A stretch of DNA of 9,067 nt from a virus (taxonomy: Monodnaviria; Loebvirae; Hofneiviricota; Faserviricetes; Tubulavirales), in IMG/VR virus record IMGVR_UViG_2660238346_000022. The stretch is one strand, 5' to 3'. The position numbers and the translations under genes are program-made. Shown piece by piece: positions 3,181 to 5,181 of this stretch. Position 1 is the first letter of the stretch, and each line of letters starts with the position of its first letter. The notes beneath the pieces are model-generated. The model was not told the DNA's origin. It ran no database searches and was given only the letters and a program-made list of their open reading frames with translations.

Positions 3181-5181
3181 TCAGGGACAGTTATTGTCAC
3201 AAGTCCAAGGGTCGGCTTCGCCGCCCCCACCCGCCGCGCGGGAGCGCGTCGTGCGGTGTCGTGAAGCCGACGAAATAAACACAGATTCATAGCTGCTGCC
3301 GCTTCTGGCTTCCTCTGCGCGGATTTTTTCTGAGGGGGTCATACGGCGGACAACACAACCCATAAAACGGGTTATGACCGGAACAGGGCCAAACATGAAA
3401 CCGGAAATCACCGGTGCGCAGGGTTCACCGTAACGGTTAATACGGGGCTTACCACCTTCCTGCGGCTGAACGTAAAACGGACGAAGCAGACGTTCAGAAC
3501 AGAAGAAACCGCCGTTCAGCAGGATATAGGTCCGGAAATCGCCTGCATCACAGGCCATGCGGATGGCTTCCAGTTCGGCGACCTGCTGCGGCGTGAACTG
3601 CTGCATATTGATATGATGCGCCTCAAGCGGTGCGCGGAAGCTGCGCATCTGGCGGTAAGCCGTGACGGACGGAACGCCAAAGAACTGGAACAGGCGAAGG
3701 CGCGTTGCTTTCTGCCAGCAGGCGGCACGGCTGACGGCATCACAGAATGAACGGGCAGAATAACGGTCATTCAGGGCGGTAATACCATCCGCACTGACAT
3801 CACCCGCCATTTTGGTGATGTACTTCACGATGTAACGGAAACCATCACCCTTTTCAGGGTCAATAGCCTCAATACAAATACGGTGCTCTTTCGCCCCCTT
3901 TTCATCCGGCTCATCGCGCATGGCCTCTTCACGGAAAATGGCCAGCACCGTTGCGCTCTCATGGGGATTGCAGTAAATCAGGAAATTCCAGTGCGTTGTA
4001 CCGTCAGCATGAGGCTCGACCGTACGCAGGCCGGGTATCTGAATACCGGCTTTATCCAGTCTGCGGCAGACCCGACGCCAGACGGTATTCAGCCAGGCGT
4101 GCGAATCCTTAACGGTCGGGCAACCTGCTTCCCACCATTTTTTATTCGGACGAGAATGCCATTTTCCGGCAACATTAAAACTGGTCGTCGGGTGAAAACG
4201 TGACGGCGTGGTGAGCACGATGAAGTAACCGGACAGCCCCATATCTTCGGACAGTTCACAGACGGCCTTTCCACGAACGCAGAGTTCAGCAATCCGGTTT
4301 TTCGGATTCGAAACAGAGGCGTTATGCGCATCTTCCAGCGTACAGATCAGCTCATTAAACGCATCAAAGACACCGGAGGACCGGAGATACTTTTTCACGC
4401 GTTTACTGCGGACAGCAAACAGGTCACGATGCCAGTCAGAAATATAAGGCGCGTTGCGGTTCAGTATGCCGAGCATGCGACAGACCTCATTAACCCGCTG
4501 GTCACGGACAACCCGCAGGAAACGGGTGACAAAAGCCAAATCAGTCAGACGCTTAAGCAATCCCTCATCGCCGTAACGCTCATGATAAGTGGCATAAACG
4601 GGTGCGAAATCAAAGCCGGAGATGGCCCGAAAATAGGCCATCACATTGAGAAGGTGATGCTCTGGTACATCACTATAAATGGCCCGGGAAACAAGGCAGT
4701 CACGAACAACCGAATCAGCCACCTCAGCAAGCTGTTCATCAGTGCAGAAAAGCGAGAATTCATAAGGGTCTCCGTCCTGATTGAAGAAAGCAAAACGGTG
4801 CGCGGACTCAAGCGCCATCAGCGCATTTTTCACACCGAGCTGATAAACAAGACGGCAGAAAGCGTGTGCCACGGTGAACGAAAACGAGCCAAACTGTGAA
4901 ACCAGTCCGGCAGCCTTACCCCTGTCAGCGAGAGATAAATCCGTGCAGTTAATTCCGTAAATCACACGGTCAACCTGCGTGTTACGCGGCAATGCGAGCT
5001 GTGCAGATAAGGTCCCGACCTCATCACGATACTGGCGGGAAAGCGAGGAAAGGTTGCGGGAGGCAACATCGCGCTCAGTCCGAAAATGCTCGCGTTCGGA
5101 CAGCGTCAGGCAGGGACGACTAAGGGCAACGGATGCCGCGTCGATGGCGTTATACGCTGTGAGGATGGTTGATTCAGTCAT
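3181..5181 (-). CDS. Rolling-circle replication initiator (HUH-type endonuclease, resembling the P2 gpA / phiX174 gpA class), 666 aa
   Basis: ATG at 5181 preceded by GAGAGGAG. Contains YIVKYITK (paired catalytic-tyrosine motif of this Rep class) and upstream [14 protein letters not shown] (possible metal-binding motif). The ORF-track start at 5283 is TTG without an RBS. Confidence 0.8.

Follow-up and report, generated by a model that had tools for sequence, protein, structure and literature searches.

A candidate plus-strand origin at the 3' end of a P2 gpA-class rep gene in a filamentous phage lineage of Escherichia coli

This study deals with the rep gene of a filamentous phage and with a candidate plus-strand replication origin, ori(+), at the 3' end of that gene. 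The DNA examined, called the window below, is the whole 9,067 nt of IMG/VR virus record IMGVR_UViG_2660238346_000022. Its first 599 bases recur as a direct repeat (1-599 = 8469-9067), and it is one unit of ~8468 nt plus a 599-nt overlap from a dif-integrating filamentous phage of the E. coli group. The inovirus features present are a pI/Zot ATPase, a pIII-type protein, small coat-like proteins, genes on one strand and a unit of <10 kb. Every recognisable phage gene is encoded on the minus strand of the window, which therefore corresponds to the packaged plus strand. Read in phage order, these genes are an open reading frame (ORF) of 82 amino acids (aa), rep, a 141-aa ORF, two small hydrophobic ORFs, and the major-coat-like, pIII-like, pVI-like and pI/Zot genes (table 1). 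The rep ORF begins with ATG and encodes 666 aa plus a stop; a longer, TTG-started form extends to 5283.

A first-pass annotation, made from the letters of the DNA, had reported the 666-aa ORF with its motif YIVKYITK and had assigned the product to the P2 gpA/phiX174 A class of replication proteins. Both statements held. The motif lies at residues 450-457 of the minus-strand ORF, and a profile search against Rep families, which that annotation had proposed as a check, places the protein in Phage_GPA (PF05840, residues 207-457) with an E-value of 2.5e-48 and 165.2 bits against a cut-off of 31.4. In PHROGs, residues 120-666 match phrog_91, 'nicking at origin of replication' (E 1.8e-127). The Ff gene II-type Pfam family did not match Rep at E <= 0.01. 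A total of 93 homologues were recovered, all containing PF05840. Two comparison sets are used below: alignment A1, which holds 24 Rep homologues of 24-86% identity, and 155 related loci drawn from genomes in IMG/VR and GTDB. For the gpA class 666 aa is a usual length, since P2 gpA has 761 aa and the fs2 Rep is annotated as 'orf 716'.

Conservation of the tyrosines was the other check proposed. Y450, Y454 and K457 are invariant across the 24 aligned sequences, and Y-x3-Y-x2-K was found in 153/155 related loci. Two further family motifs precede the tyrosines (table 1). The HUH position of Rep (residues 397-399, window 3985-3993) reads H-W-N, with the second histidine replaced by asparagine. Across the loci the counts were HWH 131, HHH 11, HNH 4 and HWN 7. 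HWN is confined to the enterobacterial clade of the window, where all seven loci have it (E. coli, Salmonella, Xenorhabdus), and it also occurs in A1 members from E. coli, Salmonella, Morganella, Providencia and Xenorhabdus. The substitution is conserved throughout the clade, which argues for function rather than decay.

The AlphaFold2 model of Rep is confident outside the C-terminal tail, with a predicted local distance difference test score (pLDDT) of 87.9 and a predicted template modelling score (pTM) of 0.85. Among the predicted viral structures of BFVD it is most similar to a replication protein from a Vibrio cholerae phage (E 7e-20), followed by weak matches to Microvirus replication initiators (E ~1e-3). 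Similarity to solved structures was weak, to the nuclease domains of adeno-associated virus (AAV) Rep and parvovirus NS1 (E ~0.1), and a sequence search of solved structures returned no relative of Rep. Profiles, motifs and model matches together identify Rep as a predicted HUH-type rolling-circle initiator of the P2 gpA/phiX174 A class with two catalytic tyrosines.

Judged from the sequence, the ori(+) most likely lies at 3185-3227 on the minus strand, inside the 3' end of rep. The element consists of a 26-nt core, followed by the rep stop codon TGA at 3183-3181, and a GC-rich hairpin that abuts the core on its 5' side. The full core (TTGGA-N7-CAATAAC) is present in a single copy in the window. 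Like the P2 and phiX174 origins, the element is on the coding (viral) strand.

The prediction is anchored on phage P2. The P2 GenBank record carries a 'nick site at ori' at 29892, inside gene A, within AGCGGCATCGCCGCGCCTCGGAGTCCTGTCAATAACTGTGG. The P2 stretch homologous to the window core around this annotated nick is GCGCCTCGGAGTCCTGTCAATAACTGT (also given as GCCGCGCCTCGGAGTCCTGTCAATAACTGT), while the window DNA at the equivalent place in rep reads GGGGCGGCGAAGCCGACCCTTGGACTTGTGACAATAACTGTCCCTGA, with GCCGACCCTTGGACTTGTGACAATAACTGT as its core part. The P2 peptide ...APRSPVNNCG aligns with the Rep C-terminus PWTCDNNCP. The P2 origin and the one predicted here share their layout, a GC hairpin and then CCTyGGAsTyswGTCAATAACTGT, and both fall on the coding strand towards the 3' end of rep, although the P2 origin lies ~430 nt before the gene A stop and that of the window in the last 9 rep codons.

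The related loci were then searched with a strict motif, defined as T-N-G-R-A followed by CAATAAC 12-16 nt downstream of the T. In 1.88 Mb, read on both strands, 113 matches fell in or just after rep on the rep strand, versus 12 elsewhere; these 12 fail the wider consensus. When one mismatch in CAATAAC was allowed, the core was found in 144/155 loci, once in each and on the rep strand. The core consensus across loci is cCTTGGAcTtgTGTcAATAACTGTaC, and the flanks are not conserved.

The position of the core relative to the reading frame varies among the loci. It lies inside the rep ORF in 97 loci (91 in one frame, 6 in another), overlaps the rep stop codon in 29 (24 and 5, in two frames) and lies past the stop in 18; in 2 loci the contig ends within rep. 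For many of the 24 frame-0 loci (20 among the strict-motif loci), rep terminates at the TAA of CAATAAC. Within the clade of the window the core is coding in E. coli, ends at the TGA stop in Salmonella diarizonae (L087) and lies ~190 nt past the rep stop in Xenorhabdus (L088, L090). Among described inoviruses, which resemble the window in having the core at or just past the end of rep, Dolos and CTX-VCE232 have it in a short spacer separating rep and the next gene, and fs2 has it at the rep end, reading CATTAAC instead of CAATAAC. Retention of the core in three frames and in non-coding DNA indicates conservation of DNA and not of peptide. Third-codon positions of the core are as conserved as the other codon positions, and the Rep tail (residues 629-661), which is predicted to be disordered in the AlphaFold2 model, agrees with conservation at the DNA level.

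The same core was seen in replication gene XII of corticovirus PM2 (L172, NC_000867), at ~3509, and at 2148 in Dolos (L173). Because it is found in PM2 and Dolos too, the element spans three virus realms. The PM2 record also carries a 'cleavage site' at 2253-2254. It was not adopted as an origin, being an AAGCTT site far from the ori-like core.

The 81 nt of minus-strand DNA from 3250 to 3170, which include the hairpin next to the core, fold with -17.7 kcal/mol (z -2.9). P2 and P2-like loci have an equivalent upstream hairpin, for example GGGCGGC-CCT-GCCGCCC, and a perfect stem of at least 5 bp upstream of the core was found in 42/108 distinct sequences, compared with ~11 in shuffles. An outer stem, TTG...CAA, around the core was dropped as a candidate, its positions varying without compensation.

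Nicking is expected to occur somewhere inside the core, and two annotated phages give two estimates of where. The P2-annotated nick base aligns to window position 3206. The phiX174 origin, annotated at 4306, reads CCCCCAACTTG^ATATTAATAACACTATAG (also CAACTTG^ATATTAATAAC); it has ACTTG...AATAAC in common with the window core, and the alignment puts the nick after the G at 3200 (3200|3199). Close to these positions C3203 and G3200, two bases apart (columns 12 and 15 of alignment A2), covary as a Watson-Crick pair. In 101 distinct sequences the pair is CG in 72, GC in 27, TA in 1 and a non-pair in 1. This covariation was reached by 0/500 shuffles and was absent from slid controls. It hints that the DNA at the cleavage site forms a tight turn or a mini-hairpin.

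The first-pass annotation had left the origin unplaced and had suggested the repeats of the window, or the vicinity of the palindrome at 5981-6074, as places where it may lie. Neither place was borne out. The palindrome is, by its sequence, a dif-like XerCD attachment site (attP) rather than a Rep origin. At its outer ends are XerC-arm-like 11-mers, AGTGCGCAcAA (5981, +) and AGTGCGCATAA (6074, -), and a XerD-arm-like TTATGTTgAAa is present at 6052 (-). These arms have 1-2 mismatches to the established E. coli dif sequence. On the phage plus strand the palindrome has a fold of -40.2 kcal/mol (z -10.3) in which 6 nt bulge out between the arms. The tip of this forked hairpin is a terminator-like GC stem. 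The palindrome is of the style of the CTXphi/YpfPhi XerCD attachment site (PMC4266046).

The relatives of the window place the palindrome at a prophage junction. Two E. coli relatives (L002 and L003) are inserted at dif, beside hipA, with AGTGCGCATAATGTATATTATGTTAAAT at the far end of the prophage; L002 is a tandem prophage array, and the match to the single-copy prophage L003 stops at window position 6074. No recombinase or integrase was matched among the ORFs scanned with Pfam, PHROGs and NCBIfam. In other relatives, which are at other chromosomal sites, an IS110-family transposase gene beside rep replaces the dif-like module (L001 13390-14355, L169 5919-6872); the non-coding region is replaced, with rep and the 3' element retained.

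The repeats are duplicated secretin and intergenic DNA. The segment 6128-6263 equals the last 136 nt of a secretin gene, and 6264-6960 consists of ~4.8 tandem copies of its first 145 nt; ~900 nt of the gene, as it stands in L001, are absent. Within this repeat the three central 290-nt registers are 100% identical, and the end copies have diverged. No intact secretin gene is present in the window, and L001-L003 carry one of 1209 nt. Some inoviruses use a host secretin, so that a phage-encoded pIV is not obligatory. The 312-bp repeat in the region 6870-7611 is a duplicated pI-pIV intergenic segment, which occurs once, at 100% identity, in E. coli 100416. A piece of ~90 nt within it (6870-6960, 7182-7272, 7521-7611) is shared by >5000 enterobacterial plasmids at 80-98% identity. 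It folds no better than shuffles (z 0.26 and 1.13 on the two strands), and an Rfam search of the one small plasmid checked gave no match, ColE1 RNAI included. The piece resembles the pBR322 region CTTCCGCTTCCTCGCTCACTGACTCGCTGCGCTCGG. A single-strand initiation or primosome site acting as a minus-strand origin is an unproven lead for it.

These results bear on the first alternative, that the ori(+) is in the non-coding DNA at 5422-7624 and the element at the rep end is a Rep autoregulatory site or a translational-coupling signal. Precedent exists, as the Ff and classical CTXphi origins are intergenic, the latter being 167 bp with several accessory hairpins upstream of rstR (PMC4439123). The large non-coding region of the window also has a strong hairpin and repeats to offer. 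The hairpin, however, is made of dif-like XerC/XerD arms, with the L003 match ending at its outer edge, and the repeats are duplicated pieces of secretin and intergenic DNA, which relatives either lack or have in one copy. Furthermore, an IS110 gene takes the place of the non-coding region in L001 and L169, where rep and its 3' element stay, and the mapped P2 nick falls in the homologous element. We therefore regard an intergenic ori(+) as unlikely.

A second alternative concerns the integrity of the window. Between its copies the 599-nt overlap has 2 substitutions (66/8534, 234/8702) and one 1-nt indel (365/8834), the indel lying shortly before the pI start. Such differences are easier to reconcile with a tandem prophage, or with a circular assembly that contains errors, than with a clean circular permutation. 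The gutted secretin is either a mark of a defective phage variant or an assembly artefact. From these defects and the 312-bp duplication it could be argued that the window is defective or mis-assembled and that the pairing of rep with the morphogenesis genes is an artefact of assembly, but several complete E. coli chromosomes (the tandem array L002 among them) and IMG/VR contigs have the same rep-to-pI order at 95-98% identity, and three of these contigs are near-identical to the window. Since the gene order is shared by relatives, the pairing is real whatever the status of 6128-7611, and an artefactual origin of it seems quite improbable. The last alternative, that the 26 nt are conserved for a C-terminal peptide PWTxxNNC required by the protein and not for a DNA site, matches the translation of the element as P-W-T-x-x-N-N-C in the window and in many P2-like proteins but is very hard to sustain when other loci translate this DNA in two other frames, take their rep stop from it or have it up to ~190 nt past the stop, when the tail is predicted to be disordered and when third-codon positions are conserved equally.

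Table 1. Features of the window (positions on the 9,067-nt stretch; A1, alignment of 24 Rep homologues)
Feature	Position	Strand	Evidence or remarks
pVI-like minor virion protein	375..734	-	phrog_1944 E 1.6e-4; position
pIII-like adsorption protein	734..2098	-	Pfam Phage_Coat_A E 6e-9; tblastn match to IKe and I2-2 gene III
Major-coat-like small protein	2150..2410	-	Signal peptide plus hydrophobic helix; weak match to phrog_1646 'major coat protein' (E 0.0035); gene order
141-aa ORF, gene V (single-stranded DNA-binding protein) position	2725..3150	-	phrog_30648 (unknown function) E 1.5e-94
rep, 666 aa	3181..5181	-	Pfam PF05840, phrog_91, homologue alignment, AlphaFold2 model
Predicted ori(+) core, 26 nt, CCTTGGACTTGTGACAATAACTGTCC	3185..3210	-	Overlaps the last 9 rep codons (PWTCDNNCP)
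GC-rich hairpin, GGGGCGGC-GAA-GCCGACCC	3209..3227	-	Abuts the core on its 5' side
YIVKYITK codons, paired-tyrosine catalytic motif	3811..3834	-	Residues 450-457; Y450, Y454, K457
Metal-binding motif codons	3985..4017	-	Residues 389-399; E389, P390, H391, D393, H397 invariant (A1)
Family motif 1 codons (uuTLTxP-like strand)	4192..4224	-	Residues 320-330; T324, P326, S327, H330 invariant (A1)
Small ORF, 82 aa	5174-5422	-	Overlaps the rep start codon by 8 nt; weak match to phrog_3104
66-aa ORF divergent from rep	5556..5756	+	phrog_2503 (unknown function) E 7e-27
Putative attP, two inverted dif-like XerC/XerD sites	5981..6074		Forked hairpin on the phage plus strand
Secretin (pIV/GspD) gene remnant	6128..6960	-	BLAST against intact E. 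coli prophage L001; repeat family D1
pI/Zot-like assembly ATPase	7625..8827	-	Pfam Zot; phrog_1675 'protein I of M13' E 1e-50

The genes around rep were classified by profile matches and gene order. The 141-aa ORF directly after rep and the origin is inferred from its position to have a single-stranded DNA-binding role, and the corresponding gene of Shewanella phage Dolos is annotated as an ssDNA-binding protein. The two small hydrophobic ORFs follow, between it and the major-coat-like ORF. The Gly/Ser-rich linker of the pIII-like protein is encoded by 39-nt tandem repeats (1230-1463). Relatives differ in the copy number of these repeats, and in E. coli prophages pIII measures 1356-1386 nt. 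A second, partial copy of pI/Zot occupies the left end of the window (~1-358) within the 1-599 overlap. The 82-aa ORF, whose translation may be coupled to that of rep, is without annotation in the E. coli relatives. On the other strand, the 66-aa ORF is by its position possibly a regulator analogous to rstR. A 189-nt ORF on the same strand is annotated just upstream of rep in L002/L003. NCBIfam gave no usable match for the ten proteins searched, and the Rfam and tRNA scans of the window were empty.

The occurrence of an inovirus morphogenesis module beside a gpA-class Rep, to which the first-pass annotation had drawn attention, stood as an observation, as pIII, pVI, pVIII-like and pI/Zot genes are all present. 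It did not stand as a novelty. A tblastn search with Rep of 50,697 phage records identified the inoviruses fs2, VFJ, Vaf1, Dolos and pre-CTX/CTX-VCE232 ('RstA-like') at 29-33% identity, along with P2-like myoviruses, HP1/HP2 and corticovirus PM2. The records call Rep a putative replication protein in fs2 and label it 'nicking at origin of replication' in Dolos. A gpA-class Rep with an inovirus module is thus an established arrangement. Megablast of the whole window against the phage collection matched no described phage, while E. coli prophages 95-98% identical to the window were found, already annotated "replication endonuclease". The 90%-identity cluster of Rep holds 2063 sequences; of the 40 members read, all that are named come from E. 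coli, and nearly all bear the designation 'replication endonuclease' or 'replication protein'. In the eight closest Rep clusters the named members read are E. coli, with one Shigella. Other E. coli inovirus prophages, with Reps 58-64% identical, have the same layout. The window represents an uncharacterised E. coli lineage of gpA-Rep inoviruses.

One relative separates the replication genes from the rest. L005 (IMGVR_UViG_2693429536_000001) has, at 978-3424, a 2.4-kb block of rep and the next gene that is 98% identical to the window, and it otherwise has unrelated virion genes; L005 is not IKe-like at the DNA level. Sequence comparison shows rep and the next gene travelling as a module. According to Roux et al. 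2019 (PMC6813254), protein families associated with replication and integration are widely shared among the candidate inovirus families.

Comparison with known systems shows which parts of the phage follow which precedent. P2 gpA belongs to the same Pfam family as the window Rep and has the three motifs, including Y-x3-Y-x2-K, in 761 rather than 666 aa. The two proteins are ~25-30% identical, P2 having H-W-H where the window has H-W-N, and P2-type proteins often carry an extra N-terminal domain, PF23343, that was not detected in the window Rep. P2, unlike a filamentous phage, packages double-stranded DNA in a tailed capsid. A similar overall plan is seen in fs2, VFJ (Saetivirus), Vaf1, Dolos and pre-CTX/CTX-VCE232, which are filamentous and have a gpA-class Rep of 650-720 aa, then a gene in the gene V position and the virion genes. 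These Vibrio and Shewanella inoviruses differ from the window in Rep sequence (~29-33% identity), in having HHH or HNH and not HWN, and in their hosts. The fs2 record has a full gene IV, of which the window lacks an intact copy.

The phiX174 gene A protein is of the same two-tyrosine class as the window Rep, whose structural matches to Microvirus Reps are weak (E ~1e-3). Its 30-bp origin is likewise inside the rep gene on the viral strand, and ACTTG^...AATAAC resembles the window core, although the spacer is one base longer, an upstream GC hairpin is lacking and the virion is icosahedral. Ff phages (M13/f1/fd) share with the window the rolling-circle logic and the order of gene II-position gene, gene V-position gene and virion genes, but their gene II protein belongs to a different Rep family. 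The Ff gene II protein has ~410 aa and a single catalytic tyrosine, and the Ff origin lies in the large intergenic region. With integrative mobile elements exploiting Xer (IMEX) of the CTXphi/YpfPhi/CUS-1 type the window shares the absence of an integrase among the ORFs tested and inverted XerC/XerD-like sites that fold in the plus strand. Its relatives are prophages at dif, in tandem. YpfPhi, at 8.7 kb (PMC4266046), is close in size to an intact relative of the window, whose unit is 8739 nt.

Taken together, the combination of a gpA-class initiator, an origin at 3185-3227 and a palindrome serving as attP is in our judgement probable. For P2 and phiX174 it is established that a two-tyrosine HUH-class enzyme initiates rolling-circle replication at an origin inside its own gene. 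By analogy, Rep would recognise the final 40-odd bases of its own gene as the origin and cut the plus strand there, with the 5' phosphate linked through Y450 or Y454. Host polymerase and helicase would carry synthesis from the 3' OH round the circle, after which the second tyrosine would cut the regenerated origin and rejoin the displaced strand into a plus-strand circle, which the gene-V-position protein would coat for export through pI. The palindrome would serve XerCD integration at dif. In this scheme nicking by Rep at the origin, the exact bond and the host factors are inferred, the basis being homology of the protein and of the site.

Several points weigh against the scheme. The only experimental anchor for the origin is the nick feature in the P2 GenBank record, and we found no nicking or replication experiment for this phage or its close relatives. 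A text search for the core sequence in a collection of papers matched only unrelated primers. No origin motif was found in 9/155 loci. Metal binding and nuclease activity are assumed for a Rep with HWN at its HUH position. The P2- and phiX174-based estimates of the nick are 6-7 nt apart, which makes the exact bond ambiguous, and the covariation of C3203 and G3200 may reflect few independent events, as the sequences are related. Given the CTXphi ori(+) (PMC4439123), further cis elements may also lie elsewhere in the window.

A broader proposal is that the hairpin plus the 26-nt core (cCTTGGAsTysTGTcAATAACTGTaC, with the covarying pair across a two-base turn) is the universal nick site of the gpA class. 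We hold this to be doubtful at present, and offer it tentatively. If true, the site would be common to P2-like tailed phages, PM2 and many filamentous phages and would be related to the phiX174 origin, and in the E. coli inovirus lineage the origin would double as the last rep codons, cut by an H-U-N enzyme. If it is also undescribed for inoviruses, it would define their plus-strand origin and provide a minimal cis element for phagemid-type vectors.

The pairing of Rep and virion genes carries little weight as a discovery, as swaps of inovirus replication modules are known (PMC6813254) and gpA-type Reps have been in the record since fs2. What the analysis adds is that three cis elements are told apart, namely the origin, the dif-like attachment hairpin and the rearranged secretin and intergenic repeats. 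The HWN motif throughout the clade and the covarying origin pair are small, testable oddities for the HUH endonuclease field. The predicted plus-strand origin of a common E. coli prophage family is narrowed to ~45 bases at the end of rep, so that nicking, phagemid and host-factor experiments can be designed directly.

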